DNA from: Opitutaceae bacterium | GTDB taxonomy: Bacteria > Verrucomicrobiota > Verrucomicrobiia > Opitutales > Opitutaceae | Direction of reading: 5' to 3' | Assembly (NCBI GenBank): GCA_002713695.1 | Contig: PAUB01000001.1 | Location: 397,325 to 461,324, forward strand | DNA: 64,000 nt | Shown here: positions 16,850 through 44,541 of the stretch, piece by piece | How positions within the stretch are numbered: the first letter of the stretch is position 1 | Layout of the letters: each line of letters starts with the position of its first letter | The notes under the pieces: model-generated | Seen by the model: the letters and a program-made list of their open reading frames with translations, nothing else | Database searches by the model: none | Told to the model about the DNA's origin: nothing | Position numbers and translations under genes: made by a program

Positions 16850-19129
16850 CTATGGATGGCCCGGTTCCGTTGGGACATACAGTTGAAATGAGCTGACTTG
16901 GGCCGGTTGCGGCAAAGGCCCGAGAGTCAGCGTGTGCAGCCCGGGCCCAATCAGCTGAAGCGGCAGAATGGCACGCCCGTTGGTGTTGATTTTGATGTCT
17001 TGCACGGCATCACGGTCGAAAGCTGCGGGCAGGTAAACGGGCAGGTCATCTGGGGCGAACTGCAACTCGATGATGATGGGCTGGGTCGACCGACTGAAAA
17101 ACTTGATCTCAGTCCTCTGAAACAAGGTGCGGGAAAGAGGCAGACCGCGTTTCTTCATGAAGTCCTTCGGGAAGCCATTCAGCATGGGGAAAGTGTCGCT
17201 ATCGAAGAATGGTTCAAGATGGTTCTCAATCACCTCGAAGTCACCGGAGACATATAGCTTAGGCTTGGTAGGTATTGATTCCGACCGGTCAAAGATGTCG
17301 ATATAGCGCAGATTCCGCACGACCAAGTCAGATTCATAAACCACTTCCTGATTTCCGACGTCGGTGAAGAAAACGAATTTTTGATAGAATTTTGGTAACC
17401 CCAGTCTCACTGGGCTCAATAGCACCATCGCATTGGCCATGGCGGTAAAAGAGGGGGTTTCGGTGGACAGCACCATGGAGTGGGACTCGCCCAAGCGGGA
17501 AATTTCTGCCCGGTCCTTTAGACTGTCGGAGGTGTATTGCGCATCAATGGAGTGATTGTCGTAGGCGAACTGGTAATGTTTCAGGTCGTTCTGGACAAAA
17601 TGCACCAGCAAGGGAGCCAGCATGGCGAGTAGAACGAGCCGCCCGGTTGTGGCCCGCCACGTGTGGTCATGCCCGGCCACCACCCACGGCAGCACGCATA
17701 CGGCGGCCAGAGGCACGAAGGCGAAGATCGCCAGAGCCCGGAACAGTTCGTAGTCACTTTTAAAAATCCCCAGCAAGCCAAGCCCGAGGATCAGAAGGAA
17801 ACTGAGGAGATAGGGCAATAACCGGTGCCAAGGCCGTCGCAGCAAGTTCGCCCCGATAAAAAAAACGAGCAGTATGACAAAACCCCAAACGTAGGGCTTT
17901 TCCCCGGCTAGTAGTGGCTGCGGCGGGATCATATTCAGATTGAGAGCCGGCCAGACATAATCGATTTTGGACAGAAAGTGAAGTTGCGATCTGTCACTTC
18001 CCTGCAGTGCGTTGCTAGGTGCGGGGGAGAGCACGGCGAGCAGCCGCGCAAATGTGGTGGAGAACAGCACCCGGCCAAACGGTGCGACCAATATCAAAGT
18101 GGTGACCACGGTCAGAGCTCCATTACCCAGTAGCCGGAGCAACCGGCGGCGCTGCCACGCAGTCCACATAAGGAAGGGAGTTACGACAGCGAGAACGCCG
18201 ACTAGGGCGAGTTCCCCGTCCGGAAATAACAGCGTTTGAGCGGCGAGGACCAGACCCACATAGATGGCCGAACGCCACGTGGTGACTGGCCGCACCGCGA
18301 GCATGATCAGCGGATAGAACGGTAGAGCCAACACATTGGCGAAAAACGTGTGACTACTCAGCATCCAGACCGGCATCGCCAAGGTGCCCATGATGGCAAA
18401 TCCCGTACTGGCCCAGAGCGGCAGCCGCAGCAGCGACCGACCGAAGACGACCAGCGCCAGATAGAACAGGGCTAGCCCCGTGATCAGCAAGGGGGAGAAA
18501 ACCTCGTGAGTGGAGAGACCGAGGAGCCCGGCCAGTCCGGCCAGTGATGACATCGTGCCGGGTTTTTCGGTAAACGAGCGCTCGTGGAAATGGCGCAGAT
18601 CCTCGGTGAGAAAGCCCGACACTCCATCATAGGGCCCCACAGTAGGCACGATGCCTGTACCGTGACTGGCGATGTTTTCGGCCATGCGCATATACATGTA
18701 GCCGTCGCTCCCAGCGTAATGCCAGAACACAAGATCGGGATTTTGGACGAAGGGGCGGAAGTTGATCTCTAACACCACTACGAGACCGACGGCCACGAGT
18801 CCGCTCGAGAGGGTGCAACGCCAGCCGGGACGGAAGGGGAAACGCCGGGGCGCGGAGCGCCACCAAAGCAGGAGCACGGTGAGCCAGAGGGCCCCGAGCA
18901 ACAACCAGAACCAGGGAATGGATGTGACTATTGGTCGCGAGGTGGCGTAGAAGAAACCGGTGAAGACAGTGAAGACGGCCAGGCCGGTCACCGGTGCGAG
19001 CAGGAGCCGCGCGGAAACCCGCCACCGCCCGGGCGGGCGATCAATGCGCGTCAGCAGCAGCAGATTCACGGGCAGACCCAGTATCCCGAACAGAGCGAGG
19101 ATTTCCAACGTTCGAAGGATGACAGTCAT
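16850..19129 (-). CDS. Large polytopic membrane protein (putative GT-C-type glycosyltransferase or polymerase) with ~230-aa C-terminal soluble domain
   Basis: 759 aa with more than 12 hydrophobic segments. The loop motif 'HYAGSDGYMYMRMAENIASHG' follows the third or fourth TM. It has the same architecture as the 945-aa protein. Confidence 0.5.
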   Translation of the reverse strand: MTVILRTLEILALFGILGLPVNLLLLTRIDRPPGRWRVSARLLLAPVTGLAVFTVFTGFFYATSRPIVTSIPWFWLLLGALWLTVLLLWWRSAPRRFPFRPGWRCTLSSGLVAVGLVVVLEINFRPFVQNPDLVFWHYAGSDGYMYMRMAENIASHGTGIVPTVGPYDGVSGFLTEDLRHFHERSFTEKPGTMSSLAGLAGLLGLSTHEVFSPLLITGLALFYLALVVFGRSLLRLPLWASTGFAIMGTLAMPVWMLSSHTFFANVLALPFYPLIMLAVRPVTTWRSAIYVGLVLAAQTLLFPDGELALVGVLAVVTPFLMWTAWQRRRLLRLLGNGALTVVTTLILVAPFGRVLFSTTFARLLAVLSPAPSNALQGSDRSQLHFLSKIDYVWPALNLNMIPPQPLLAGEKPYVWGFVILLVFFIGANLLRRPWHRLLPYLLSFLLILGLGLLGIFKSDYELFRALAIFAFVPLAAVCVLPWVVAGHDHTWRATTGRLVLLAMLAPLLVHFVQNDLKHYQFAYDNHSIDAQYTSDSLKDRAEISRLGESHSMVLSTETPSFTAMANAMVLLSPVRLGLPKFYQKFVFFTDVGNQEVVYESDLVVRNLRYIDIFDRSESIPTKPKLYVSGDFEVIENHLEPFFDSDTFPMLNGFPKDFMKKRGLPLSRTLFQRTEIKFFSRSTQPIIIELQFAPDDLPVYLPAAFDRDAVQDIKINTNGRAILPLQLIGPGLHTLTLGPLPQPAQVSSFQLYVPTEPGHP

Positions 19130-19160: not shown

Positions 19161-20108
19161 TCAGGCGGGACGGTCAAAACCGGCGCTGTGCTCCACAATG
19201 AACTTGGGGCGGGAGCGCACTTCTTCATAAATCCGGCCGATATATTCGCCGAGGATACCTACGCTAATCAACTGGATGCCACCGAGGAATGAGATGATGA
19301 TTACCAAGGTTGGGTTGCCCCATAGAATTGTCCAACCCATGAACTTGTATAAAAGATATATGGCCATGAGGAGAAAGGAAAGGGTGGCGATAATGAAGCC
19401 CATGATCGTGCTAAGCTGGAGTGCGTAGGTGGAGAAACAGAATATACCGTTGAAGCCGATGCGTAGCGAACCGAAGAAGCGGTTGTAATTGGTTTCTCCC
19501 GTGTGCCGTGTTGGCCGATCGAAGGGGATGATGATTTGCTTGAACCCCACTACTGCGACCATGCCACGCAAAAAGCCGTGAGATTCCTTGAGTTTAACCA
19601 GTTCGTTTACCACCCGGCGCGACATTAATCGGAAATCGCCGATGTTAGGGGGGATTTGCACGTCAGCAATCTTGTTGATGACCTTGTAGCCGACTGCGGA
19701 TACAACCTTTTTGATCCAAGGCTCACCCGTTCTTTGGCGGCGCTGAGGCAGCACCACATCGTAACCCGCGCGCCACTGGGCTACCATATCCGTCACGAGT
19801 TCAGGTGGATCCTGCATATCCACGTCCATCACGATAGCCGCTTCACCAGTTGAATACTGCATGCCGGCCATTGTGGCCATCGGTTGGCCGAACCGTCGTG
19901 AAAATTTCAGTAGCTTGATTCGCTCGTCGCTAGCGCGGGCCTCAAGGATGACGTCTTCTGTCCGGTCTGGTGAAGGGTCGAGAGCGAAAATAATTTCGTA
20001 GTTCTCAGTACTGGCGCTTAGCACCGGCCGGATCTGGCGTAGAAACTCTGGGATATTCTTTTCTTCCCGAAAAACTGGGACGATAACAGATAAGAGGACA
20101 GGATTCAT
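19161..20108 (-). CDS. GT2 polyprenyl-phosphate glycosyltransferase (GtrB/ArnC/DPM1-like) with two C-terminal TM helices
   Basis: 'LSVIVPVFREEKNIPEF', 'IVMDVDMQDPPE' (DxD) and a C-terminal hydrophobic pair; 315 aa. Confidence 0.8.
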   Translation of the reverse strand: MNPVLLSVIVPVFREEKNIPEFLRQIRPVLSASTENYEIIFALDPSPDRTEDVILEARASDERIKLLKFSRRFGQPMATMAGMQYSTGEAAIVMDVDMQDPPELVTDMVAQWRAGYDVVLPQRRQRTGEPWIKKVVSAVGYKVINKIADVQIPPNIGDFRLMSRRVVNELVKLKESHGFLRGMVAVVGFKQIIIPFDRPTRHTGETNYNRFFGSLRIGFNGIFCFSTYALQLSTIMGFIIATLSFLLMAIYLLYKFMGWTILWGNPTLVIIISFLGGIQLISVGILGEYIGRIYEEVRSRPKFIVEHSAGFDRPA

Positions 20109-22942
20109 GAAGCGGGAGTGATCTTGATGGCTTTCAGCAGCACGGTTACTGGCCGATTATCCGGAGCTGGTAAAGACTGGGTGCAGTCAAATCGCAGTTC
20201 AATCTTAACTTGCTGTGCGGCTGTCGGGAGTAGTGCTTCCAAGTTTACTGTGCCGGCTGTAAGGTCCTTAGTTAATAGGCTGTGTCCATTCGCAAGCAAC
20301 TCGACCCTGTTAGTGGCAGGAGACTGGCCAGGTATTTGAGGCAGTAGCGCCTGAACAGTGATCTTATCTCCAGGATTGACTGGCCCAAGCACGACGAAAG
20401 TGTGGTGCGACCCCCATCCATCCTCATAGATGCCAGAATATTCGAGGTTATTTAGCGTGAGCAGATCGTTTGGAAAGCGTGAAATCTCCTGCGGGAGTTT
20501 GCGCGACTGATAGGCATCCTCGTCGATGGCAGATATGTCTCGGCAATACCCCAATGCAAGTCGTGTATCCAGAGATAGATTCTGATTGTAGATTCCTTGT
20601 AGATTACGTGCAGGCAGGCCTAAGGGGATAGGAGGCCGACCGAGATCGATTGCAATGTAGGCGGCTCCGTTGATCCATGTTGGTTCCACCGGAGGGGAAT
20701 ACACATTGGCGCTGCCGGATCCGACGAAACCGAGTCTGGCAGCATCATCTACTCCGAAACGAACCAGGGCATCTTCTGGTAGCTGAGTCCGGCCTTGTCC
20801 GAGAACCGTGGTCGACATGGATAGGCGCAGCCGGATTTTTTTCGTGGGATTGAGGACACGCATGAGCAGATGTCGTCCGATAGCGAAAAATTGCTCTTCT
20901 GGTTTAAATACGTCCGCTTGCGACCTATAGACAGCAATATGTCCGGCGGCTCCCAAGTAGTAGTGTTGGCCTTCTTGGGATTGGACGAATACTAGATGGT
21001 TTCTCAGATCGAGTAGCTGCGCGTAAGTGAATAATCCGTTGGAGGCGAGGAATGGTCTGTCCCCAAGCTTGTTGAAGGCCCGAAGCTCGGCTTGCGAAGT
21101 GATGAGAAGATCTTCCGCATGAGGTGAGCGATCTGCTGTGCGAGGGGCCCAAAAATGCAGTCCTAGCACTTGGTTCTTACTGTAGACTTCGGTTAGGATA
21201 TACTGTCCCACAGCCGTGACTGTGTCGGCCGTCGCGTCTCCAGGAGTCATGCGCCAAACCCAAGATGGATACGGCTTTGAGGTACGTCCCATAATGTTCG
21301 CGATAACTAATTGGCTCAGAAATACTGGCTGTGCATCTTGTCCCTCAAGCATCAATAGCTTGTTGATTGGTGCGCTCGCGGTATCTGACCAAGCTGGCCT
21401 GTCGGGTAGGACACCGCGTGACTGGGAAGCATTCAGTAGTTCACCTTCGACACTCCTTTCAAGATGGGTGAACGAGTAAGTGTAACGCCAAGTCCCCGTA
21501 ATCCACACTGCCAGCAAGAGGACGTATAACACGAGAAGGGTTCGTCGGTGTCGACAAGCTACGGCCTTTCGCGTGAGTTCCAATATGAGAAAAGGCAGGG
21601 CGAACATGGCTAGCTTGAACAATCCGAAGCCATTGCTGGTATAAAAAAGCAATGCCCCGATTGGTGCCATGGATACTAGCAAGGCAGCTGGCACGGTGAA
21701 GTTACGGCGCCAGGACAGCATAAGTGCGAGTGTGCTTACTGCAGCGGCTAATCCGCCAACCAGCGCGAATGATGTCCAAGGTTCCGCGTAGCGGGTGACA
21801 AAAACATCGAAACCAAAGAAAAACGCCGGACCTGACGGCATCAGGAAATAAGGAAAAAGAGAGATGCGAGCTATCGTGGACGCCGAGGATTGAGCGTTCA
21901 ATCCATCGGCCGCCTGACCTAGCAGTGTCAGGCTGGTGCTGAGGGCATTATGCCGAAGTAGCAGGAAAACAATGACTAGTGCGGCAGCAGCTGTGGGTAA
22001 CATGCCGGGGAAGCCTCGTCGCCGCGACCTCATCTGCACGATCATGTATAGTATCCAACCTAGAACCAAAAATGGAAGGACCTCGGGATAATAGATGCAC
22101 AATGCGGCAATCAAGATAGCACTCGCTCCAGCGAGTCGCACCCGTCCTCCACGCGAAGAAGGAAAGCGGGTGCGCGCGATCAGAACTAAAATGGCGGCTA
22201 GCAAGCCCAAGCCGGCAACTTGGGCAATGAGCTGATACATAATTCCTACATGCCACAGCGGTGCGACTCCGAGGGTGACGGCCGTAATCAAACCAATGAG
22301 ACGCCCGGCAATCGTTGCGCTAGCCAGTGCAATGATGGCGGTCAACTGGGTTAAGCAAAATGCCAAGAGGGTAGGCATGAAGATGGCGATGGGCTTCAGA
22401 TCAAAGATACCTGCCACGTAGGCCAACATATGCTCGCTGCCGAAACGCATCAGTCCTGCGACATAAAACATCCAATAAAGTTGAGGATAATCCTTACCAT
22501 CCAGATCGACCGGCTGGGGGACATCATAGAATCCGTGGTGGAGAAACCGTTCAGCCCCCAGACAGTAATTGGTCATGTCGTCGTTGCCATAGCCTACCCA
22601 AGTCCAGCCGTAGATCAGCAGGGGCCAGCCACTTAGGAGTAAGACTGCGAGAAGAATAGTGACTGTCTTGCCTAGACCTATTGGGGCGCAGATTCTCTTC
22701 CATATGAGTATTCCGATTCCTATCACACTTGTGGCGGCGAATAACCAGTGCGCAAAGGAGTCAAAGGGCAGACCAGCCTGATTCAGGAGCATGCCTAAAA
22801 GACTCAGTGCCGCCATGCCGAATGTAGGTGCGAGTAACCAGCTGCGTGTGCGGCCACACCTCAGACCAAGTAGAATCTGAAGTACCTGTCCAGTGAGCGT
22901 AAAATGCCCGAACAGCACCAAGGTTAGTAGTAATGGCAGCAT
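20105..22942 (-). CDS. Large polytopic membrane protein (putative GT-C-type glycosyltransferase or polymerase) with ~440-aa C-terminal soluble domain
   Basis: 945 aa. The loop motif 'GYGNDDMTNYCLGAERFLHHGF' follows early TMs, and the N-terminal ~500 aa are hydrophobic. The C-terminal half is soluble and ends in a beta-sandwich-like segment. The stop overlaps the downstream GT2 start. Confidence 0.5.
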   Translation of the reverse strand: MLPLLLTLVLFGHFTLTGQVLQILLGLRCGRTRSWLLAPTFGMAALSLLGMLLNQAGLPFDSFAHWLFAATSVIGIGILIWKRICAPIGLGKTVTILLAVLLLSGWPLLIYGWTWVGYGNDDMTNYCLGAERFLHHGFYDVPQPVDLDGKDYPQLYWMFYVAGLMRFGSEHMLAYVAGIFDLKPIAIFMPTLLAFCLTQLTAIIALASATIAGRLIGLITAVTLGVAPLWHVGIMYQLIAQVAGLGLLAAILVLIARTRFPSSRGGRVRLAGASAILIAALCIYYPEVLPFLVLGWILYMIVQMRSRRRGFPGMLPTAAAALVIVFLLLRHNALSTSLTLLGQAADGLNAQSSASTIARISLFPYFLMPSGPAFFFGFDVFVTRYAEPWTSFALVGGLAAAVSTLALMLSWRRNFTVPAALLVSMAPIGALLFYTSNGFGLFKLAMFALPFLILELTRKAVACRHRRTLLVLYVLLLAVWITGTWRYTYSFTHLERSVEGELLNASQSRGVLPDRPAWSDTASAPINKLLMLEGQDAQPVFLSQLVIANIMGRTSKPYPSWVWRMTPGDATADTVTAVGQYILTEVYSKNQVLGLHFWAPRTADRSPHAEDLLITSQAELRAFNKLGDRPFLASNGLFTYAQLLDLRNHLVFVQSQEGQHYYLGAAGHIAVYRSQADVFKPEEQFFAIGRHLLMRVLNPTKKIRLRLSMSTTVLGQGRTQLPEDALVRFGVDDAARLGFVGSGSANVYSPPVEPTWINGAAYIAIDLGRPPIPLGLPARNLQGIYNQNLSLDTRLALGYCRDISAIDEDAYQSRKLPQEISRFPNDLLTLNNLEYSGIYEDGWGSHHTFVVLGPVNPGDKITVQALLPQIPGQSPATNRVELLANGHSLLTKDLTAGTVNLEALLPTAAQQVKIELRFDCTQSLPAPDNRPVTVLLKAIKITPAS

Positions 22943-33578: not shown

Positions 33579-34235
33579 ATGTCGAATATTTTTCCCAAGT
33601 CAGCGAATAAGCTTCCGCTGCAAATAGTGATTTTCCTATTTGTGGTCGGTGGTATCGCCACCGCGGCCGTCACGTATTACATGACGCCAAAATACACCCG
33701 CGTAGGATATGCTCCCGTGCAACCCGTGCCGTTTAGTCATGCGATTCACGCTGGGCAGCTGGGTCTGGATTGCCGTTATTGCCACGTGGGAGTGGACAAG
33801 GGGCCGGTTTCAACGGTTCCCGCCGCGCAGACCTGTATGAACTGTCACAACCAGATCAAGGTGGACAGCCCTCTGCTGGCCGTCGTGCGCGAGAGTTACG
33901 AAACAGGGAAACCGGTGCCTTGGGTGAAGATTCACCAAGTGCCAGATTACGCTTACTTTAATCACGCAGCCCACGTAACCCGTGGAGTTAGCTGTGTTGA
34001 GTGCCATGGTCGCGTCGATGAGATGGATACCGTGGTGCACACCAAATCACTTAGCATGGGATTCTGTCTCGATTGTCATCGTAATCCAGAGAAGGCGGTT
34101 CGTCCGCTCGATAAGGTGACCGATCTTTCGTGGGAGCACCCTCAAGGCGAACAAGGCCAGTTGGAAGACGGTGCCAAGTTTGTTCACGACTGGAATATCA
34201 AGCCACCGCAAAGCTGCTCAGGCTGTCACCGATGA
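33579..34235 (+). CDS. actA: Alternative complex III subunit ActA, membrane-anchored pentahaem cytochrome c
   Basis: N-terminal TM plus five CxxCH sites (CRYCH, CMNCH, CVECH, CLDCH, CSGCH). First gene of the act cluster. Confidence 0.85.
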   Translation: MSNIFPKSANKLPLQIVIFLFVVGGIATAAVTYYMTPKYTRVGYAPVQPVPFSHAIHAGQLGLDCRYCHVGVDKGPVSTVPAAQTCMNCHNQIKVDSPLLAVVRESYETGKPVPWVKIHQVPDYAYFNHAAHVTRGVSCVECHGRVDEMDTVVHTKSLSMGFCLDCHRNPEKAVRPLDKVTDLSWEHPQGEQGQLEDGAKFVHDWNIKPPQSCSGCHR

Positions 34236-34456
34236 AACGCAAATTTCACCATCCCGCACCGTCTGAAACCGAGATCAAGAACGGCCCCAAGTATTGGCGC
34301 AGTCTTGACGAGCTGGCTGCTACGCCCGGCTTTAAGGCGCAGCTAGAACGCGAATTCCCTGAAGGGGCAGACAACATGAACGGTGTCGATCGCCGGCAGT
34401 TCATGAAGATCATGGCTGCTTCTTTCGCCCTCGGTGGCGTTGGATTGGCCGGTTGC
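34232..34456 (+). other. Long Tat-type signal region of ActB ending in a lipobox-like LAGC
   Basis: Twin-arginine 'VDRRQFMKI' at aa 52-60 follows a ~50-aa N-terminal extension. An h-region '[11 protein letters not shown]' and then 'LAGC' (Cys75, 34454-34456) follow. Confidence 0.55.
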
Positions 34457-37400
34457 CGTCGACCGGAAATCAATATTTTGCCCTTCGGAAAATCAGTCGA
34501 AGGAGTGATTCCCGGTCTTCCTCTCTATTTTGCCACGGCCATGCCAGTGCGCAAAACCGCGATTCCTCTCTTAGCTGAGACTCATCAGGGACGTCCGACC
34601 AAGATGGAGGGCAATCCTAAGTATGCTCCTCACGGCGGCGCGAGCTCGCTTCATGCGCAGGCATCCGTATTGGATCTTTATGATCCCGATCGCTCAGAAA
34701 TTCACACTTTTGATGGTTCTCAACTGAGTAGCGAAGCCTTGAACGATCTTCTTGAGAAGATCGGCTCGGATCACGCGGCGAAAAACGGCGCTGGATTGGC
34801 ATTTTTGGCTGATGAATCAAGCTCGCCGACTCGGGCACGATTGGTCGCCAAGCTTCATAGACAATTCCCGTCTGCGATTTGGGCTGAATATGAGCCGATC
34901 CAAGACGAGGCTCCTGTTTCTGCCGCTGCTGCCGTCTATGGCCGCAACGTAAAACCTCTTTATCACTTCTCTAAGGCAAAGCGCATCGTTTCGATCGATG
35001 CTGATTTCCTGAGAGCAGAAAGCGGTAGTCTCGCTTACGCACGTTCTTTTGCCAAGGGGCGTAAAGTTGTCGAGCGTGACGATGCGATGAACCGCCTCTA
35101 CTCGGTGGAGAGTGCATTTACACTTACTGGTTCGATGGCGGATCACCGTTTACGCCTCGCGAGCAGCCATATGCATGCCTTTGCGGCAGCGTTAGCCAGC
35201 AAGGTCACGGGTAATACCGATTTGGGTAATCTCGCTGCGGGCCTCGAATTTCCTCATCAGGAAGAATGGCTCCAAGCCTGTGCTGATGATCTGCGGCATC
35301 ATCAAGGTGAGTGTGTGGTCGTTGCTGGTGCTCATCTACCTGCCGCCGTGCACGCGATTGTTTACGCGATCAACGAATTCCTCGGGAACGTTGGCTCGAC
35401 CATCGATTTCGTGGAGATTGCTGCATCAACTGCCAGCAGCATCAAAGACTTGGCCGCATCGATTGAAGGTGGGGCAGTCGATACACTCGTCATTTTGGGT
35501 GGTAATCCTGTTTACAACGCACCGGCTGATCTCGAGTGGGAGACTTTGCAGAAGTCTGTTGATAGTGTCGTTCATTATAGCTACTACGTGAATGAAACCA
35601 CAGTTGCCTCCAATGTTCACATTGCCGCGACTCACTACCTCGAGTCTTGGGGCGATGCTCGCACCGGTGATGGCACTGTAGTGCCTGTGCAGCCGATGAT
35701 TCTTCCGCTTTTCGACGGACTAACTGAATTAGAAGTCTTGGCTCGTATCCTAGGTGAGAACGATACGGATCCTTACACGCTTGTTCTCGCGACTCTCGCG
35801 AAGTTGACCGACGGCGATACGGCCAAAGCGATGCGCCAATTTTTGCATGATGGATTGCTGGCAGATTCCGCTTATCCAGTAGCTAAAGTGAAATTTAACG
35901 CCGCCAATGCATCAGTATTGACCGAAGTTTCTGGCGAGTTTCCTCATCTTTCAGGTGAGAGCCTCGAGGTCCGTTTCGCCACTGACAACAAGATGGATGA
36001 CGGCCGTTTCAATAATAACGGTTGGTTACAAGAATGCCCGGATCCAATTTCCAAAATCACTTGGGAAAACGCGATTTTGGTAAGCCCACGTTATGCAAAA
36101 GAGCTCGGGATCACCCCTCAGGGTTCTAAACTACAAGTGGCTCGCGTAGAATTGGCCGATTACAAGCAGGGCAAAGAGATGGCTCCCGTCGCTGAAGTAA
36201 CTGTCAACGGACGCATGATTACTGGTCCAGTTCACATTCAGCCTGGACTCGCGAATTACACCATTGTGCTCCCAGTGGGCTATGGTCGCACAGTTACGGG
36301 CCGAGTTGGCGAAGGTTCAGGATTCAATGCTTACAGTCTCCGCACCACAGACACTTTAGGTTACGCCGCAGGTGCCAGTCTCAAATTGACCGGTGAACGT
36401 GTCGCTCTTGCCAGCACTCAGGAGCATTGGTCGATGGAAGGTCGCGCGTTGGTTCGCGAAGCCAATCTCGACGAAGTCCAAGCTCCCGGCAGTGATGGAC
36501 TCGCTTTCGTCGATGCGATCAGCTTGGAAGCGCATAGCCCTCCAATTTACGGCGAAGATGGGGAGAAGATGTCGTTGGCGGAAAAAGCCAGCACGACTCC
36601 TCGTGGTAATTCACTCTACGAAAGCCCTGATTATAAGGGCGTTCACCAGTGGGGTATGACCATTGATCTTAACACGTGCATCGGCTGCAACGCCTGTATT
36701 GTTGCCTGTCAGTCGGAAAATAATATTCCAATCGTTGGCAAAGAACAGGTCATGCTTGGCCGTGAGATGCAGTGGATTCGCTTGGATCGCTACTATTCTG
36801 ATGGCAAAGCTGATGCTGGTGCGTTTGGCGGCCCAGGGAATCGTGAGATTCCCGAGGATCCACAGGTTTCCATGCAGCCCGTCGGTTGCATGCAGTGTGA
36901 GCTCGCGCCTTGCGAAACCGTTTGTCCGGTCAACGCGACTATCCACGACGAAGAAGGCCTCAATGTGATGGCTTATAATCGCTGTATTGGCACTCGGTAT
37001 TGTGCGAATAATTGCCCTTACAAAGTGCGTCGTTTCAATTACTTCGATTGGAATCAACGTGACCGCGATAGCTTTTATCTCGGCCCGCTCGGTCCGAAAG
37101 GTATGCCCGATCTCATCTCCATGGTGCAGAATCCCGAAGTCACCGTTCGTATGCGTGGGGTGATGGAGAAGTGCACGTATTGCGTGCAACGCATCGAAAA
37201 CGGTAAGATTCAACACAAGGTTGCGATGTCCAAAGCAGGACGTCCCGGCGATGTGGTCGTGCCTGATGGCCAGATCAAAACCGCCTGTCAGCAAGCGTGT
37301 CCTGTCAGCTCAATCGACTTCGGCAATATTCTCGATCCCGAGAGCGAAGTTTCGAAGGCCAAGGCCCGCGAACAAGATTACGCTCTGCTTGGTTATCTGA

Positions 37401-37606
37401 ATATCCGTCCTCGGACGACTTATCTCGGTAAACTGCGCAACCCGAACCCAAGCATGCCTGATTACGAGCAAATGCCATTCAGCCGCACCGAAAACGCGAA
37501 TAAGAATCATCCTCCATCCATGCATGGTGATGATCATGGGGGAGGGAATAGCTCCGACGCCCATGGCGAATCTAAAGAAGCCTCGCATCAAGGAGGGCAT
37601 AACTAA
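34232..37606 (+). CDS. actB: Alternative complex III subunit ActB (molybdopterin-oxidoreductase-like domain fused to 4Fe-4S ferredoxin-like domain)
   Basis: Tat motif 'DRRQFMK'. Cys clusters '[15 protein letters not shown]', '[14 protein letters not shown]', '[12 protein letters not shown]' and 'CTYCVQR...CQQACP'. Start set at ATG 34232, overlapping the actA TGA (ATGA). The track ORF begins at 34130, inside actA. Confidence 0.85.
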
Positions 37607-39030
37607 TGTCACAGAGTTCTGATACAACCACCCCGGCGATTCTCTCTGAAGTAAACCCCGCCGTTTTGCCCCGTGCAAAACTGGTGGAAAACAACCGCGA
37701 CTTCTCGTGGATCACCGAAAAAATCTGCGGAATCATCGAGGGGAAAACTCCCGCATGGTGGTGGTGGTGCTTCAGCTTAGCCTGCTTTATCGCTTCGTTC
37801 ACCGTAGTCGGCATTGTTTACTTGGTCGCAACGGGTGTTGGCGTCTGGGGGCACCGTAATCCGGTAGCTTGGGGCTGGCCGATCGTGAACTTCGTGTTCT
37901 GGATTGGTATTGGTCACGCCGGAACTCTGATCTCTGCGATCTTGTGTCTACTCAGACAAAAATGGCGCACATCGATTAATCGCGCGGCAGAGGCCATGAC
38001 GATTTTTGCGGTGGTTTGTGCGGGTATTTTCCCCGTCTTTCACGTGGGTCGTGTCTGGTATGCGTGGTTTCTCTTTCCGATCCCGAACTCTAACCAGATG
38101 TGGCAGAACTTTCGTTCACCCCTGGAATGGGATGTGTTTGCTGTTTCCACTTACGGCACCGTTTCTGTCTTGTTCTGGTATGTCGGCATGATCCCTGATT
38201 TGGCGGTTCTTCGTGATCGCTTCTTTAACGCTGGGAATCGGCTGCGTTCGAGCCTCTATGGTTTCTTTGCGATGGGCTGGCGCGGTTCTAATCGCCACTG
38301 GAGTAACTACGAAATGGCCTACTTGATTCTGGCCGGTGTCGCCACGCCTCTGGTGTTGTCGGTGCACACGATCGTGTCTTTTGACTTCGCGGTATCTCTG
38401 ATCCCCGGATGGCACACGACGATTTTCCCTCCATACTTCGTGGCTGGTGCTATTTTCTCCGGATTCGGTATGGTGCTCACCCTGATGTTGCCGCTACGTG
38501 CGATCTTCAAATTGGAAGATCTGATCACGCAGTATCACATCGACTGCATGTGTAAGATCACTTTGGCGACCGGCACGATGGTTGGTTACGCCTACGGCAT
38601 GGAGTTCTTCATCGCCTGGTATGGAGCCAATCCGTATGAAGGCTTCGCGTTCATCAATCGTGCCTTTGGTCCTTATGCCTGGGCCTACTGGATCATGATT
38701 TCCTGTAACGTGATCACACCGCAGTTCTTCTGGTTCAAGAAGGTCCGCCAAAACACCTCGATGGTGTGGATCCTTTCGATCTTCGTGAACGTGGGCATGT
38801 GGTTCGAACGTTTCGTGATCATCTGCACCTCGTTGACTCGCGACTTTCTGCCATCGAGCTGGGCTTATTTCAGCCCTTCGATTGTCGATATCTTCACATT
38901 CTTCGGAACGTTTGGCGTCTTCTCGGTGCTGTTCCTTCTCTTTATTCGGTTCCTCCCGATGATGCCTATCGCGGAGATCAAATCGGTCACACCTGGTGCC
39001 GATCCTCACGCCGGACCTTCTCACCACTAA
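37606..39030 (+). CDS. actC: Alternative complex III subunit ActC (NrfD/PsrC-like quinol-interacting membrane subunit)
   Basis: 474 aa with ~10 TMs and NrfD-like sequence. The start ATG overlaps the actB stop (TAATG). Confidence 0.85.
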
Positions 39031-39042
39031 CCTATCACGCAA

Positions 39043-39576
39043 ATGTCTGATCAACCTTACGGCTTAATCGCCACGTTTGATAACGCTGTGGATCTCTACC
39101 ATGCGGCGGAGCAGGTGCGCGATGCCGGCTACAAGAACTGGGATTGTATCACTCCTTGTCCGGTTCACGGTCTTGATGGAGCGATGGGTCTTAAACGTTC
39201 CATCGTCCCACGTATTTCCCTCGTCGGTGGTATCATCGGATTTTGCACGGGCATGTCTCTCATCTTCTGGACCGGTGCGATCGATTATCCGCTGTTAGTC
39301 GGTGGTAAACCCTACTTCAGTCCGATGTTCGCGTTTCCTGTCTCATACGAACTGACGATCCTTTTCACGGCTTTCGCCACTATTATCGGCATGTTCGTAG
39401 TCAATGGACTGCCCAGCCACTACCATCCTATGCTCAAATACGAACATATCGCACGAGGAATGGATGATAAGTTTTTCGTGGTGATCGAAACACGCGATCC
39501 GCGATATAATTCCGAAAATACCAAGGCTTTTCTGGAAAAGACCGGCGGTCAAAATATCAAGGAACTGGAAGCCTGA
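39043..39576 (+). CDS. actD: Alternative complex III subunit ActD (DUF3341-like)
   Basis: 177 aa. A soluble N-terminal domain 'YGLIATFDNAVDLYHAAEQVRDAGY' precedes two TMs. It occupies the conserved position after actC. Confidence 0.75.
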   Translation: MSDQPYGLIATFDNAVDLYHAAEQVRDAGYKNWDCITPCPVHGLDGAMGLKRSIVPRISLVGGIIGFCTGMSLIFWTGAIDYPLLVGGKPYFSPMFAFPVSYELTILFTAFATIIGMFVVNGLPSHYHPMLKYEHIARGMDDKFFVVIETRDPRYNSENTKAFLEKTGGQNIKELEA

Positions 39577-39578
39577 TC

Positions 39579-40232
39579 ATGCGTAACGTTTACATCGTCA
39601 CCGCGCTGCTTGTGGTTCTCACCTTATCGTTGTTGGGACTTCGCGGCACTAAGTTCACCAGCCCTCCGATGGATGTATTTCCAGAGTGGGCATTTCCTGG
39701 GATGAAATATCAGCCCAAATACAAGCATCAGGGCAGCAGCGAATTCTTTGCTGATGGTCGTGCCGACCGTCCGCTGCCTCCTGGGGTGGTGCCGGCTAAT
39801 TTCGGACCACTCGGACATGCCTTGATCACAGATGATCACATGGCGGATGGTCGTGCTTCTGACGGTTCATTCGCTCAAGGCTTTCCAGCCGGGGTGGAAA
39901 TGAACCACGAGTTTCTGCGGCAGGGTCGCGACAGCTACGTAATTTACTGCGCGCCTTGTCACGGTGCTTTGGGAGATGGCAATGGCATCACCAAGCAATA
40001 TGGCATGGGAGCGACGCCTACTTACCACGACGGTCGTCTTCGTGATATCGCCGAGGGTGACCTTTATAACACGATCGCAAACGGTAAGGGCAATATGTTG
40101 TCCTACGCCGACAAGTTGACGGTGAATGAACGCTGGGCAGTCGTTGCCTACGTTCGTGCTCTGCAGCGCGCGCAACAGGGTTCGGCAGCAGATGTGCCTG
40201 CCGCCCACAAATCGGAGCTTGGAATTAAATGA
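39579..40232 (+). CDS. actE: Alternative complex III subunit ActE, monohaem cytochrome c
   Basis: N-terminal anchor, a single 'CAPCHG' site and a distal 'GKGNMLSY' Met. Confidence 0.8.
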   Translation: MRNVYIVTALLVVLTLSLLGLRGTKFTSPPMDVFPEWAFPGMKYQPKYKHQGSSEFFADGRADRPLPPGVVPANFGPLGHALITDDHMADGRASDGSFAQGFPAGVEMNHEFLRQGRDSYVIYCAPCHGALGDGNGITKQYGMGATPTYHDGRLRDIAEGDLYNTIANGKGNMLSYADKLTVNERWAVVAYVRALQRAQQGSAADVPAAHKSELGIK

Positions 40233-41458
40233 GCACTCCTGCTGACAATAATACTGCCGCACTGGCATCAAAGGCACTTTTCGTCGGCCTGGGTGGAATC
40301 ATTGTGACGGCGCTTGGACTTTTGTTCACTGATGCGCAGGTCATTGCCATGTCCTGGTTGGTCGGTGTGACCTTCTGGACCGCGATTGCCATTGGCATGT
40401 TGCTGCTGGTTTTGATCCATCACATCTTTGATGCATCTTGGTCGGTGGTTTTCCGCCGACAATTCGAGCATGGTTTGGCTTCATTCAAATGGCTCGTGCT
40501 TCTATTTGTGCCCTTGTTACTGGCGTCCTGGTTTGGTCCTCGTGATTTGATTTGGTCCTGGATGAACCCCGAACATGTAAACCATGGCGGATATACGGTG
40601 GGAACTGACGTGCTCTATCTGAAAAAGTCTAGTTTCTTGAATCTAAACATGTTCACGGGAATGACCGCGGCATTTTTTGGAATTTGGATCTGGCTTTCCG
40701 CTCGTCTCCGCAAGGCCTCATTCACACAGGACGTCGATGGTGATGTCGCTTGGACTACCATGAATCGCTGCACGGCTGCGTTCGGTATTCCTCTCGTGGC
40801 ATTTTCTCTTTCCGCTGCAGCCATTTATTGGATCAAGAGTCTAGAATATCACTGGTTCTCTACCATGTATGGTGTCTGGTTTTTCACCAACTGCGTGCGC
40901 GGTGCGCTCGGGGTAGGGGTGATTATCGCAATCTGGCTCTACAATCGTGGAGACTTTAAGGGCATCCTTAGCAAGAACCACATGCACAGTATCGGCATGC
41001 TGATGCTCGCTTTCACGGTCTTCTGGGCCTACATCAGCTTTTCCCAATATTTCCTGATCTGGAATGCCAATATCCCTGAAGAGACCTTCTGGTATAACAT
41101 CCGCGAATACGGCGATTGGCTCTGGGTAGGTATGCTCCTGCTGTTCGGCCATTTCTTCCTGCCGTTCTTCTTGCTGCTCTCCTATCGCTTTAAGGTAACG
41201 CATCACATTGTGCGTCGTATAGCCTACTGGATACTCGCGATCATCTTGGTCGATATCTGCTATAATGTGCTTCCGGTTATGCAGGATTCACATGGTCATC
41301 CAGAACCATTTTTCTCGATGAAACTCCTCTGGATCGTGACAGCGGTAATCGGTGTCGGCGGTATCTGCGCTTGGTCCTACCTCAAGAGCCTTCCGACCAC
41401 TAAACTCATCCCTATCCGTGATCCTCGTATCTCGGAATGTCTGACCCATCATGAGTAA
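40229..41458 (+). CDS. actF: Alternative complex III subunit ActF (second NrfD-like membrane subunit)
   Basis: 409 aa and polytopic. It follows actE with an ATGA overlap. Confidence 0.75.
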   Translation: MSTPADNNTAALASKALFVGLGGIIVTALGLLFTDAQVIAMSWLVGVTFWTAIAIGMLLLVLIHHIFDASWSVVFRRQFEHGLASFKWLVLLFVPLLLASWFGPRDLIWSWMNPEHVNHGGYTVGTDVLYLKKSSFLNLNMFTGMTAAFFGIWIWLSARLRKASFTQDVDGDVAWTTMNRCTAAFGIPLVAFSLSAAAIYWIKSLEYHWFSTMYGVWFFTNCVRGALGVGVIIAIWLYNRGDFKGILSKNHMHSIGMLMLAFTVFWAYISFSQYFLIWNANIPEETFWYNIREYGDWLWVGMLLLFGHFFLPFFLLLSYRFKVTHHIVRRIAYWILAIILVDICYNVLPVMQDSHGHPEPFFSMKLLWIVTAVIGVGGICAWSYLKSLPTTKLIPIRDPRISECLTHHE

Positions 41459-41750
41459 TTCATCAACGGCGCGACCTATCTCGGTGTTCTCCATCTTGGC
41501 GATCATCGTATGCCTATCTCTCTTCTTCTTCCTCGTTTATTGGGCGTATTTGCCTAAGCAGACGGGGGCATTCATCGGCGATGGCATACGCACAGCCGAG
41601 GAGCGTAAATCAAATCTCTCTGAGCTTCGTATCGAAGAGGCTAAAAAGGCCAACAGCTACGCATGGATCGATCAGTCCGCTGGACAAGTTCAGTTGCCAA
41701 TCGAGCGTGCGATGGAACTCACCGTGCAGCGTTATCGCTCACAGAATTAA
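41451..41750 (+). CDS. Small single-pass membrane protein, unknown function (ACIII/oxidase accessory?)
   Basis: 99 aa. One TM 'ISVFSILAIIVCLSLFFFLVYWAY' precedes a charged helix and the tail 'YAWIDQSAGQVQLPIERAMELTV'. It overlaps the actF stop by 8 nt. Confidence 0.6.
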   Translation: MSNSSTARPISVFSILAIIVCLSLFFFLVYWAYLPKQTGAFIGDGIRTAEERKSNLSELRIEEAKKANSYAWIDQSAGQVQLPIERAMELTVQRYRSQN

Positions 41751-41771: not shown

Positions 41772-43190
41772 ATGACCCAAACTACGTCATCCACCGCGTC
41801 ACCCGGAGTATCGGAAATCGATACTTCTTCACGCTGTGCCTTATCTTTTCTTATCGTCGCCTCACTTCTTTGGTTGGTGACGGGTGGGGTGCTTGCCTTG
41901 CTTAACTTGCTGCAGACGCATACCCCGGGCTTTCTGGCTGATTGCTTCCTGTTTACTCATGGTCGCCTCGATGCGATGCAGGAAACTGCATTGGTCTACG
42001 GTTGGGCGGGCAATGCTGGCATCGCCGTAGCTCTCTGGTTGTTGTCCCGCTTAGGTGGTTCGGCATTGCGGGGCACGAACTACTTGGTTGCGGGTGCACT
42101 CTTTTGGAACATCGGGGTAAAGCTCGGCGTTTATGGAATCGCATTTGGCGACATGACTTCGTTCTCCCTGATGCAAATGCCGGATTATGTGCAGCCTCTC
42201 ATGTTAGTGGCTTATGCTTTGATGGCTGCTCCCGGTGTGCTCGCATGGACGGGACGCCGGAATGACAGCACCTTCGCGACTCAATGGTATGCGATAGCTG
42301 CACTTTTTCTCTTCCCGTGGTTCTTTTCTGCGGCTCAAGTCATGCTGCTCTTCGCTCCGGTTCGAGGCACCCTGCAGTCTGTCGTCAGCACCTGGTATGC
42401 CCAGAACTTGTTTAGCTTGTGGATGGCACCACTGGCCATCGCTGCGCTCTACTATCTGGTTCCTAAAATCCGCGGTAAGGTAATGCCAAATTACGATTTC
42501 GCGATCTACGGATTCTGGTCTCTGATTATTTTTGGCACATGGACGGGTGGTCGTCACTTGATCGGTGGACCAGTGCCAGCATGGATTCCTTCGGTGGCGC
42601 TTGGCGCTGGGGTATTAGTGCTTTTCCACCACATGATTGTTTATCTGAACATGAGCGGCATTGGAGGCTCCGGTGGTGTTGTCATGAAGTTGGCCAAGTA
42701 TGGCTTCTATGCTTATCTGCTGAGCGGTGTTATTGATGCTCTATTCTCCTTACGTAGCTTTGCGGTGATTACGCAATTTACGCTCTTTCAAGAGGCGCAG
42801 TGGCAACTCGCTCTAGCTTCATTCTCACTGATCATGTTTGGCGCAATTTACTACTTGGTGCCTCGGATATCAGGAGCCGTTTGGCCTTCATCCGGTTTGG
42901 TCCGCGGTCATTATCTCGCGACCATCTTGGGCTACGCCGTCCTCATTATCTCTCTCGGAATCGCCGGATGGCAGCAGGGCACGGCGCTCAATGATGCTTC
43001 GATGTCATTCGAAGCGATCGCTGCTCAATACCGCCCCTGGTTGCTCGTTGCTAGTTCGGCTCAGGCCTTGTTGCTGGTGGGTAACTTAGCACTGCTGGTT
43101 AATTTTGTTCGCATCCTCTTTGTGAAAACGAGTGAGGCTGCGACCGGTCAGTTCCGTCAGCCTACTAACCTGGAGGCCTCCTCATCATGA
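41772..43190 (+). CDS. CcoN/FixN (cbb3 oxidase subunit I)-like 12-TM protein lacking most canonical haem/CuB histidine ligands
   Basis: 472 aa. The family context motifs are retained with His replaced: 'GRLDAMQETALVYGWAGN', 'TWYAQNLFS', 'GGRHLIGGPVPAW' and 'EAQWQLA', plus 'LYYLVPK' and 'IYYLVPR'. It is coupled by ATGA to ccoO. Confidence 0.75.
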   Translation: MTQTTSSTASPGVSEIDTSSRCALSFLIVASLLWLVTGGVLALLNLLQTHTPGFLADCFLFTHGRLDAMQETALVYGWAGNAGIAVALWLLSRLGGSALRGTNYLVAGALFWNIGVKLGVYGIAFGDMTSFSLMQMPDYVQPLMLVAYALMAAPGVLAWTGRRNDSTFATQWYAIAALFLFPWFFSAAQVMLLFAPVRGTLQSVVSTWYAQNLFSLWMAPLAIAALYYLVPKIRGKVMPNYDFAIYGFWSLIIFGTWTGGRHLIGGPVPAWIPSVALGAGVLVLFHHMIVYLNMSGIGGSGGVVMKLAKYGFYAYLLSGVIDALFSLRSFAVITQFTLFQEAQWQLALASFSLIMFGAIYYLVPRISGAVWPSSGLVRGHYLATILGYAVLIISLGIAGWQQGTALNDASMSFEAIAAQYRPWLLVASSAQALLLVGNLALLVNFVRILFVKTSEAATGQFRQPTNLEASSS

Positions 43191-43819
43191 AAAACGGACC
43201 GTTATTCTTCTTAGGTCTATTCTTTGCTCTGACGTTGTCCTGGGCCGTATTGGCTCTTGGCACCCACGCACAGTTGGGTGATCTCCAACCTCACTACGAT
43301 GATCTCGAAGGGAAGGCTTTCCCTCAACGCGCGCCGGGCATCGCCTCGCGTGGGCAACTGGTTTATCAGGATCTGGGATGTATGAGCTGCCATACTCAAC
43401 AGGTTCGTCGCCCCAGCTATGGAGCTGATGAAGCTCGTGGATGGGGGAGTCGCCAGAGCGTCACCCGTGACTATGTGCACCAGAAGCGTCCGCTTATTGG
43501 GCAGAGCCGTCTCGGGCCTGATTTAGCTAATTTCGGAATACGGGCCGAAGCTGCTGGGACGACCAAGACCGATCTACTGGTAAATCTTTACAACGGAATG
43601 AACGGAATGCCTGCTTATCGCTTCTTGTTCGAAGAGCGCGAGATCGTTGGCCAACCTTCAAGCAATGCGCTTCAGGGAGTAGCCGCTGCTGGTTCCGAGC
43701 TCGTTCCAACTGAACGTGCTAAGACTTTGGCCGCCTATTTACTGAGCTTGAAACAGACTTATGAATATCCAGAAGCACGGCCCTATGCTCCGGATGAAAC
43801 CCAGGAGGGAGCCCACTAA
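43187..43819 (+). CDS. ccoO: cbb3-type oxidase subunit II-like monohaem cytochrome c (CcoO/FixO)
   Basis: N-terminal TM, then 'GQLVYQDLGCMSCHTQQVRRP', 'SRLGPDLANFG', 'NGMPAYRFLF' and 'LAAYLLSLK' match the CcoO pattern. Confidence 0.8.
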   Translation: MKNGPLFFLGLFFALTLSWAVLALGTHAQLGDLQPHYDDLEGKAFPQRAPGIASRGQLVYQDLGCMSCHTQQVRRPSYGADEARGWGSRQSVTRDYVHQKRPLIGQSRLGPDLANFGIRAEAAGTTKTDLLVNLYNGMNGMPAYRFLFEEREIVGQPSSNALQGVAAAGSELVPTERAKTLAAYLLSLKQTYEYPEARPYAPDETQEGAH

Positions 43820-44481
43820 TGAGCTCACAAGACTCTAACGACCCTCGTCTCGAGCAGGCAGCTGCAACGGATGATAGTATTATTTCCGCCCACGAAAAGG
43901 CATCTGAAGGCCGTCCCGATGTGGATGGTAACTATCGGTTAATACCGCTTGTGCTGTTGTTTGTTTTCAGTGGATTTATCTTTTTCGGCGGCACCTATCT
44001 TCATCGCTACACAGGCTACTTTAGCCCAGAGATATTCGACGAACGCCAGCATGCTGGAGGCGCAGTTACAGAAGCACCGCAAATCGATCCTGTCGTATTG
44101 GGTAAGAAACAATACGATCTCGCCTGTATGACCTGTCACATGCCAAACGGACAAGGACTACCGACTGTCTACCCCCCATTGGTTGAATCTGAATGGGTCA
44201 CCGGTTCTGAAAAGCGTTTGATCGCTATTGTGCTGCATGGTCTGAAGGGCCCTATTACTGTTAAGGGTAATGTCTACAGTGTCGCAGCGATGCCTGCATT
44301 CGGCCAAGTAGCTGGTGGTGGTTACAACTGGAGCGATCAAAAAATCGCTGCTGTGCTGACTTACATTCGCCAAGAGTGGGGAAATACTGCTGGTGCGATC
44401 GAAACCGCCACCGTCACCGCATTCCGTGAACGTGGTGATCGGAAGGAATGGATCGAAGCTGAGCTTCTGGAACTTCCTTAA
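43819..44481 (+). CDS. Membrane-anchored monohaem class I cytochrome c (occupies the CcoP position but has one haem site, not two)
   Basis: A TM 'LIPLVLLFVFSGFIFFGGTY', a single 'CMTCHMPNGQG' site and 'AAMPAFG'. The start overlaps the ccoO stop (TAATG). Confidence 0.75.
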   Translation: MSSQDSNDPRLEQAAATDDSIISAHEKASEGRPDVDGNYRLIPLVLLFVFSGFIFFGGTYLHRYTGYFSPEIFDERQHAGGAVTEAPQIDPVVLGKKQYDLACMTCHMPNGQGLPTVYPPLVESEWVTGSEKRLIAIVLHGLKGPITVKGNVYSVAAMPAFGQVAGGGYNWSDQKIAAVLTYIRQEWGNTAGAIETATVTAFRERGDRKEWIEAELLELP

Positions 44482-44510
44482 TCGTTCGCCGAATCATTTT
44501 TAAAAAGCAA

Positions 44511-44541
44511 AGAGCCGCCCTGTTTAAGGGGCGGCTCTTTT
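44511..44541. terminator. Bidirectional rho-independent terminator between the convergent cytochrome c gene and hldD
   Basis: The 10-bp GC-rich stem AGAGCCGCCC/GGGCGGCTCT has an 8-nt loop. A run of A lies upstream and a run of T downstream. Confidence 0.8.

Follow-up and report, generated by a model that had tools for sequence, protein, structure and literature searches.

A 2024 survey of the haem-copper oxidase (HCO) superfamily reported that the active-site histidines are fully conserved in every family except gNOR, the first family found to replace one of them (PMC11214002). In the Opitutaceae, alternative complex III (ACIII) is described in general terms as being coupled to a C-type oxidase (PMC8498564), and high-affinity respiration or removal of O2 was inferred from the cbb3 annotation of Opitutaceae TAV5 (PMC4358385). 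A similar inference of a functional C-type oxidase was drawn from the genes adjacent to ACIII in Methylacidiphilum (PMC6688271). The six metal-ligating histidines are treated as an invariant signature of the superfamily, and the databases uniformly name the proteins of the type described below 'cbb3-type cytochrome c oxidase subunit I'. The 64-kb stretch of Opitutaceae bacterium DNA analysed here (contig PAUB01000001.1, 64,000 nucleotides; the window) encodes one such CcoN-like protein in the eighth gene of a ten-gene ACIII operon. As read from alignments and a predicted structure, this protein has lost the ligands of haem b, haem b3 and CuB but kept the 12-helix fold. On sequence grounds, it belongs to a very large radiation of ligand-degenerate CcoN within the Verrucomicrobiota, in which the degree of loss is graded. 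This radiation is under selection and has lost most or all of the six histidines, with the fold and the cytochrome c partners kept; it counts at least 155 Opitutales species among its carriers, together with Verrucomicrobiota that are abundant in soil and freshwater, and spans hundreds of 50%-identity clusters.

Ligand columns of the CcoN-like protein and their conservation

The open reading frame (ORF) of the CcoN-like protein encodes 472 aa from an ATG start and contains no internal stops. The gene product matches the Pfam COX1 profile (PF00115) over residues 27-429 with 86.9 bits against a cutoff of 34.8, which places it in the COX1 superfamily. The ccoN equivalog profile (TIGR00780) gives 59.1 bits against a curated cutoff of 583, and the protein falls outside this equivalog by a wide margin. 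The AlphaFold2 (AF2) model, built from 121 homologues, contains 12 transmembrane (TM) helices and has a predicted local distance difference test score (pLDDT) of 90.3 and a predicted template modelling score (pTM) of 0.91. The top Foldseek matches of this model are all CcoN chains, and superposition on the Pseudomonas stutzeri cbb3 structure (3mk7_A; TM-score 0.87/0.88, root mean square deviation 2.3 A, 18% identity) shows that the CcoN fold is kept. The next matches are NorB (3o0r_B, TM-score 0.80) and ba3 subunit I.

The ligand columns were read from three independent alignments (phmmer to 3mk7_A, MAFFT with canonical relatives of the same clade, and the family alignment) and are listed in Table 1. 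A preliminary description of this DNA held that five of the six haem and CuB histidines of this CcoN homologue are replaced, and this is borne out by profile, pairwise and structural comparison; the codons that it named and the ATGA overlap with the following gene (43187-43190) are all exact. The bis-His ligation of haem b, the proximal His of haem b3 and the cross-linked Tyr of CcoN are absent, and one of the three CuB histidines is kept. The protein also lacks the features of NorB from cNOR and qNOR (haem b and b3 His together with an FeB site of three His and a Glu), the ligand columns being empty. In the pairwise phmmer alignment to 3mk7_A the helix X pair is displaced by two residues, still with no His in those columns, and the Ca2+ ligand E122 lies in an alignment gap.

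Misalignment that would hide the protein's own histidines was regarded as unlikely in the preliminary description, and it is ruled out here by phmmer, by MAFFT with canonical sequences from within the clade and by a canonical CcoN that is co-resident with a degenerate one at locus L090. Apart from H262, no histidine of the protein (H50, H63, H286, H287 and H380 among them) occupies a ligand column. H50, H63 and H287 vary among family members; conservation of H380, which lies in TM11 at its cytoplasmic end, extends to canonical CcoN.

A word-indexed protein search returned 788 relatives, the best 120 of which are all approximately 470 aa in length and at least 53% identical, and conservation was counted per column in an alignment of 121 homologues. 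The ligand columns hold Q70 in 105 sequences (87%), Q211 in 120 (99%), R261 in all 121 (100%), Q343 in 111 (92%) and Q345 in 106 (88%). The G255 column is Gly in 115 of the 121, H262 is kept in 94, and E71 (97%) and H286 (99%) are also conserved; in 109 of these close homologues, all five substituted positions lack a His. Forty-two columns are invariant, and the residues Q70, E71, Q211, R261, H286, Q343 and Q345 are conserved above the family median (percentile 64-90).

When one genome was scanned for each species, relatives turned up in at least 155, and the Opitutales locus counts given here refer to the best 80. These 80 genomes are all Opitutales and include the cultured Cephaloticoccus primus and C. 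capnophilus; the closest match is a Cephaloticoccus metagenome-assembled genome (MAG) with 87% amino acid identity. Wherever the contig reaches, all 80 loci are syntenic, with ActABCDEF, the small TM protein, the CcoN-like protein, the CcoO-like protein and the monohaem cytochrome c encoded on one strand. The match to the CcoN-like protein spans at least 455 of its 472 residues at 70 of the 80 loci, which is full-length nearly wherever the contig allows, and the translational coupling of the gene is conserved across the loci. The Nei-Gojobori ratio of nonsynonymous to synonymous substitution rates (dN/dS) is 0.05-0.15 for the CcoN-like gene in eight pairs and 0.00-0.16 for the act genes; the two ranges are indistinguishable, and strong purifying selection acts on the CcoN-like gene. 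With the closest of the 80 loci set aside, its product shows 48-66% identity and evolves faster than ActC, the product of the most conserved gene of the operon (83-96% identity in all but two Opitutales loci). A pseudogene is ruled out by the dN/dS, the synteny and the breadth of occurrence. The earlier opinion that the gene encodes a maintained scaffold is supported by the act-like dN/dS, the synteny of the 80 loci, the above-median conservation of the replacement residues and the absence of the Cu and haem assembly genes that adjoin the canonical relative.

One operon, on a contig labelled Tepidisphaerales in a Planctomycete bin (L008, JBIOJL010000187.1), is 61-87% identical to the Opitutaceae operon, including its Gln-type CcoN-like gene. 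A binning error is the more likely explanation of this locus, rather than lateral transfer.

Beyond the Opitutales, an exhaustive HMMER search of 1.84 billion representatives gave 1235 matches below 1e-3, 709 below 1e-10 and 277 below 1e-30. Pseudomonas-type CcoN reaches only approximately 43 bits against the CcoN-like protein, and the matches therefore represent a distinct clade. The six ligand columns were read in 132 sequences (131 full-length representatives and the query): 77 of these have no His, 40 have one, 11 have two, one has three, one has four and two have all six. Since the list was seeded with the degenerate query, the figure of two in 132 describes this clade and not the C-family oxidases generally. 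As a control, all 120 of the closest relatives of the ligand-complete CcoN of Telmatocola sphagniphila (Planctomycetes, Gemmatales) read HH-Y-HH-HH. The T. sphagniphila genome (CP074694.1) encodes two paralogous ligand-complete CcoN proteins (P0207 and P0441) that are 69% identical, and the gene context was read for P0207 (L084).

The replacement residues differ between clades. The haem b column is Ala, Phe, Ser or Gln according to clade, the first CuB column is Asn, Gly, Ser, Gln or His, and the HH pair of helix VII is often replaced by a two-residue deletion in other clades. The conservation of the Gln set, which the preliminary description had raised, holds within the Opitutales and is specific to them, other clades having Ala, Phe, Asn, Ser or Leu. 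An intermediate is encoded in an Opitutales MAG (P0128, L082:5791-7251); it keeps three haem ligands and one CuB His, with QY in place of the HH pair and Ala in place of the Tyr. A large, mostly soil clade exhibits the pattern H-N-S-Q-R-Y-H, in which the two haem b histidines are kept and those of haem b3 and CuB are lost together with the Tyr (two His in 57 of 80 metagenome loci). Loci of the soil clade include L102, L111, L118, L120, L122, L132-L138 and L145-L156. These proteins possibly retain a single low-spin haem b, and hence a functional state unlike that of the protein in the window. Together, the intermediate and the soil clade suggest that CuB was lost first, haem b3 next and haem b last.

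Partner cytochromes, gene neighbourhoods and operon layout

The CcoO-like protein carries the motifs CMSCH, GPDL and GMPAY, in agreement with its earlier description as normal-looking. The profile of its family matched only CcoO chains in the PDB (3mk7_B, E 7.8e-10; range 2e-10 to 2e-8). The assignment was made from these matches instead of Foldseek, given the poor AF2 model (pLDDT 67.5, with the haem loop at 65-111 below 50). The haem c motif expected of a co-encoded CcoO (C65xxC68H69) is present in 80 of 80 sequences. The column of the distal ligand (M141, window positions 43607-43609) is Met in 51 and His in 24 of the loci L001-L080. Both Met and His are competent axial ligands of haem, and a change from His/Met to bis-His ligation would substantially lower the haem potential. 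The variation at this column suggests that the output module is tuned differently among the Opitutales.

The last gene of the operon codes for a protein whose N-terminal tail is cytoplasmic and which has a single TM helix and a class I cytochrome c domain with a CMTCH motif; CxxCH is found at 74 of 75 loci. Its nearest solved relatives are the cytochrome c domain of a Cu nitrite reductase (3ziy, E 7.6e-17) and Thermus c552 (E 2.9e-11), and CcoP is matched weakly. Thermus c552 is the donor to CuA of ba3 and caa3 oxidases, and the c552-like cytochrome is similar to proteins known to donate to Cu centres. Judged by their motifs, both partner cytochromes keep their haem sites.

At all nine distant representatives that were looked up, the CcoN-like gene directly follows ActD-ActE-ActF and the small ORF, and every metagenome locus with an upstream flank is also linked to ACIII. 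In T. sphagniphila, a canonical CcoN is encoded in the equivalent ACIII operon with CcoS (FixS) and the P-type Cu-ATPase CcoI on its flanks. CcoS and CcoI are Cu and haem assembly factors, and neither was found within 10 kb of any Opitutales locus or anywhere in the window. At locus L086, the degenerate CcoN, CcoO and cytochrome c are followed on the same strand by COX1, COX3, COX4, COX2, CtaA, CtaB and Sco1; the COX2 of this locus, the only one read by residue, has a CuA site and lacks a haem c domain. Metagenome loci with at least 2.5 kb beyond the cytochrome c gene number 28, and in these an A-type oxidase cluster follows immediately in nine, lies further downstream in six and is not in the flank in 13. 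At locus L090 (10001-21096), the degenerate module follows ACIII and is itself followed on the same strand by a canonical cbb3 cluster (a ligand-complete CcoNO fusion, a CcoQ-like protein, CcoP, CcoG, a DsbD-like protein and CcoI). A dead copy and a live oxidase therefore coexist at such loci, and it is always the dead copy that lies on the ACIII side. One Verrucomicrobiota MAG (L089:13099-14061) has a sulfite-oxidase-type molybdoenzyme (Pfam Oxidored_molyb) after the module on the same strand, a hint that oxidases may not be the only enzymes for which the cytochrome c module collects or delivers electrons.

In the window, actA to actF are all present and in the order expected of an ACIII operon (Table 1). 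The ten genes form a tightly packed unit with ATGA or short overlaps at the junctions, and ORF coordinates, family matches and junction sequences confirm the overlapped ten-gene operon of the preliminary description. The listed ORF of ActB begins with GTG and overlaps actA by 106 nt (34130-34235); the TIGR04519 signal covers its residues 53-93, and the true start is therefore probably further downstream. ActF exhibits weak paralogy to ActC. The 99-aa protein between ActF and the CcoN-like protein is homologous to the small ORF at the equivalent place in the canonical Telmatocola operon. It gave no match in a Pfam search, and its sole PDB match, ActG (8k9e_G), is not significant (E 0.44); it may be ActG-like or, alternatively, a CcoN-associated helix. 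The hairpin that follows the operon is likely a bidirectional terminator. Upstream of the operon lies a MacAB/TolC-like efflux cluster, and downstream of the hairpin are convergent housekeeping genes on the minus strand that are unrelated to respiration. The minus strand at 5693-28447 holds a long glycan or O-antigen-type cluster (UDP-glucose dehydrogenase, GT2 glycosyltransferases, a PMT_2-like protein and a Wzt-type ABC ATPase), in which three large ORFs have no Pfam match at E <= 1e-5 (6969-8624, 16850-19129 and 20105-22942).

Table 1. Ligand columns of the CcoN-like protein (P. stutzeri residue, then window residue and codon) and features of the ACIII operon, in window coordinates
Feature	Position	Strand	Assignment or basis
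CcoN-like protein, 12-TM haem-copper-oxidase subunit I fold, operon gene 8 of 10	41772..43190	+	Profile, alignment, predicted structure
H60 to Q70 (CAG)	41979..41981	+	Low-spin haem b ligand, helix II
H207 to Q211 (CAG)	42402..42404	+	First CuB His, helix VI
Y251 to G255 (GGC)	in 42534..42557	+	Cross-linked Tyr column, helix VII
H257 to R261 (CGT)	42552..42554	+	CuB ligand, first of the helix VII HH pair
H258 to H262 (CAC)	in 42534..42557	+	CuB ligand, sole His kept
H345 to Q343 (CAG)	42798..42800	+	Haem b3 proximal His, helix X
H347 to Q345 (CAA)	42804..42806	+	Haem b ligand, helix X; Q343-W-Q345 against canonical H-x-H
CcoO-like monohaem cytochrome c, N-terminal TM anchor, translationally coupled to the CcoN-like gene	43187..43819	+	Pfam FixO, 32.5 bits against a cutoff of 29.6
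Membrane-anchored monohaem class I cytochrome c, CcoP position, c552-like	43819..44481	+	Pfam Cytochrom_C, 40.3 bits
ActA, multihaem cytochrome c subunit of ACIII, operon gene 1	33579..34235	+	Pfam Cytochrome_C7/CIII and NCBIfam QrcA-like matches; position kept in related loci
ActB, molybdopterin-like and 4Fe-4S subunit of ACIII	34130..37606	+	Fer4 domains, twin-arginine translocation variant molybdopterin signal TIGR04519, QrcB/QrcC-like matches
ActC, NrfD-type quinol-binding membrane subunit	37606..39030	+	Pfam NrfD, 97 bits
ActD	39043..39576	+	Pfam PF11821 ActD, 213 bits
ActE, monohaem cytochrome c of ACIII	39579..40232	+	Pfam Cytochrome_CBB3, 43.9 bits; single CxxCH in 69/69 loci
ActF, second NrfD-like membrane subunit, ATGA overlap with actE	40229..41458	+	phmmer match to Rhodothermus marinus ActF 6f0k_F, E 1.7e-55
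99-aa single-pass membrane protein, 8-nt overlap with actF	41451..41750	+	Present in 79/80 loci
12-bp GC-rich hairpin flanked by an A run and a T run, between the operon end and a convergent epimerase gene	44509..44540	.	Likely bidirectional terminator

Role of the CcoN-like protein

The CcoN-like protein is probably a redox-dead descendant of CcoN that serves as a membrane scaffold anchoring the cytochrome c output module of ACIII, and not an oxidase. Its ancestor would have been the catalytic CcoN of a cbb3-type oxidase fused to ACIII at the operon level. The present protein would no longer carry out O2 or NO reduction and would be retained as a membrane platform that holds the CcoO-like protein and the second cytochrome c beside ACIII. 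The CcoO fold relies on a large interface with CcoN. Electrons would pass from menaquinol through the FeS clusters of ACIII and the haems of ActA and ActE to the CcoO-like haem c and the c552-like cytochrome, and from there to a separate terminal enzyme. In related Verrucomicrobiota this enzyme would be the directly downstream aa3 oxidase, with a CuA subunit lacking its own haem c domain, or a real cbb3 oxidase; in the Cephaloticoccus-like genome studied here, the acceptor would be encoded outside both the operon and the window. Among the roles floated in the preliminary description, docking fits best, with the protein as a platform on which CcoO and the monohaem cytochrome c are held in position against ACIII, by analogy with the related operons that continue into real aa3 or cbb3 oxidases. 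ACIII already holds relic modules (PMC5928083) in the form of ActB1, which lacks molybdopterin, and of ActF, a paralogue of ActC, and a relic oxidase subunit would therefore fit the build of the complex. A taxonomic table lists the Opitutaceae as oxidase-negative, with an obligately anaerobic type (PMC10288369), which is at least compatible with a non-oxidase role. Gene linkage is what makes the CcoN-like protein, the CcoO-like protein and the cytochrome c candidate physical partners of ACIII.

Several points weigh against the scaffold role. No terminal oxidase is encoded in the window or within 10 kb at the Opitutales loci, and because of this the adapter role in the Opitutales would be an extrapolation from the operons of other Verrucomicrobiota. 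In principle, CcoO could be held by its own TM helix without CcoN. Lastly, the buried polar set conserved in the Opitutales clade (Q70, E71, Q211, R261, H286, Q343 and Q345) would seem to exceed the needs of a passive scaffold.

It is conceivable, though we consider it unlikely, that these residues together with H262 form a polar cluster that binds a non-haem metal, a differently ligated haem or a small molecule, and that the protein has a catalytic or sensing role. The above-median conservation of the substituted positions and of the clade-specific E71 and H286 within the Opitutales would be expected of such a cluster, as would the retention of H262 in most close homologues. H286 is placed by the MAFFT alignment two helical turns periplasmic of the conserved helix VIII Asn, at approximately the level of the former binuclear centre, and the CcoO-like haem c, the normal feeder of the CcoN haem b, is retained. 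However, the wider family has Ala, Phe, Asn, Gly, Ser, Leu or the two-residue deletion at the substituted positions and Pro in place of H286 in 97 of 132 sequences, so any such site would be an invention of the Opitutales only. There is no conserved His pair placed for a bis-His haem, H262 is replaced in 22% of the close homologues, Cu and haem insertion genes are absent nearby, and the buried Gln, Glu and Arg residues could equally well be a structural plug for the lost cofactors. In its general form, the proposal that the near-invariant polar set is a new functional site in the old haem/CuB cavity, either a non-haem metal centre or an ion- or proton-conducting site coupled to ACIII, is likewise doubtful. 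If true, it would define a functionally new, haem-free class within the HCO superfamily.

Little credence is given to the alternative that the protein is a cofactor-free module conducting ions or protons, conformationally coupled to ACIII or to a neighbouring oxidase and kept for energy conservation. The HCO fold is an established proton-pumping scaffold, several conserved buried polar residues lie in TM2, 5, 6, 8, 10 and 11, and proton translocation by ACIII is itself unsettled (PMC5928083, PMC8498564). N293, in the column of the KC-channel Asn, is invariant. Against this, the C-family channel is largely dismantled: of the residues that we take, from the cbb3 literature, to make up the KC channel, T215, S240, H243 and Y251 are replaced by A219, A244, G247 and G255 in the phmmer alignment to 3mk7_A. 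The only channel columns kept are that of Y223 (Y227 in the phmmer alignment) and that of the Asn (N293 in the MAFFT alignment), and the residual proton pathway suggested in the preliminary description is weakened by the four Ala and Gly replacements. In addition, it is the redox chemistry of the binuclear centre that powers pumping by HCOs, and this protein has no such centre; the core columns are hydrophobic in other clades. A functionless, decaying cbb3 remnant carried along in the operon is effectively refuted: ligand loss alone is the expected product of decay, a single base change turns His into Gln and the protein evolves faster than ActC, but the low dN/dS, the near-universal full-length matches with conserved translational coupling, the 42 invariant columns and the hundreds of 50%-identity clusters all speak against it.

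For the scaffold role, the gene order suggests a supercomplex in which ACIII, an adapter of dead CcoN, CcoO and c552, and an aa3 or cbb3 oxidase may act together, and this hypothesis makes the hand-over of electrons from ACIII to its acceptors directly testable. High-affinity O2 respiration inferred from the 'cbb3' annotation of the Opitutales clade is unsafe, given the ligand columns of the encoded proteins. No description of ligand loss in these genes was found in the full-text-searchable literature, and earlier mention in subscription papers is possible; relative to the searchable literature, a cofactor-less, selected CcoN derivative that would act with ACIII is new.

Comparison with known systems

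The CcoNOP module of cbb3 oxidase (P. stutzeri 3MK7/5DJQ) shares with the window the 12-TM fold, the N-O-(P-like) gene order and a CcoO partner with an N-terminal anchor, CxxCH and a Met ligand. Many residues that determine the fold are also common to both (G64, R93, W208, Y228-x-x-P231-K232, W249, N293 and H380). The CcoN-like protein differs from CcoN in that the ligands of haem b, haem b3 and CuB are gone except for one His, it has neither the cross-linked Tyr nor the Ca2+ ligand, and its KC channel is replaced by Ala and Gly. The operon differs in the absence of CcoQ and nearby CcoGHIS assembly genes, and in its third subunit, which is monohaem and c552-like whereas the CcoP of cbb3 oxidase is dihaem.

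The ACIII-linked cbb3 operons of Planctomycetes (T. sphagniphila, Gemmata and Tuwongella) have the same superoperon of ActA-F, a small TM protein, CcoN, CcoO and cytochrome c. The Planctomycete CcoN is the closest ligand-complete relative of the CcoN-like protein, with 29% identity and 219 bits compared to approximately 43 for Pseudomonas CcoN. In contrast to the protein described here, the Planctomycete proteins have all six His and the Tyr in 120 of 120 sequences, and the Telmatocola genes are flanked by CcoS and CcoI.

In the ACIII-caa3/aa3 supercomplexes of Flavobacterium johnsoniae and Rhodothermus marinus, the terminal-oxidase genes likewise follow the ACIII genes. In these complexes a membrane-bound cytochrome c domain, fused to an oxidase subunit, accepts electrons straight from the ACIII haems. 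Unlike this arrangement, the related Verrucomicrobiota have a separate module of degenerate CcoN, CcoO and cytochrome c between the ACIII and oxidase genes, a module known here from its genes.

The ACIII relics ActB1 and ActF are comparable in that the catalytic scaffold of another respiratory enzyme is kept structurally after its cofactors are lost; they derive from the CISM and PsrC families, whereas the CcoN-like protein derives from a haem-copper oxidase and is a putative relic. The gNOR family (Murali et al. 2024, PMC11214002) is similar: it too belongs to the HCO superfamily, its active-site ligands are altered and it lacks the catalytic Tyr. In gNOR one CuB His is replaced by Asp and both haems are kept, whereas in the CcoN-like family five of the six ligand histidines or all six are replaced.

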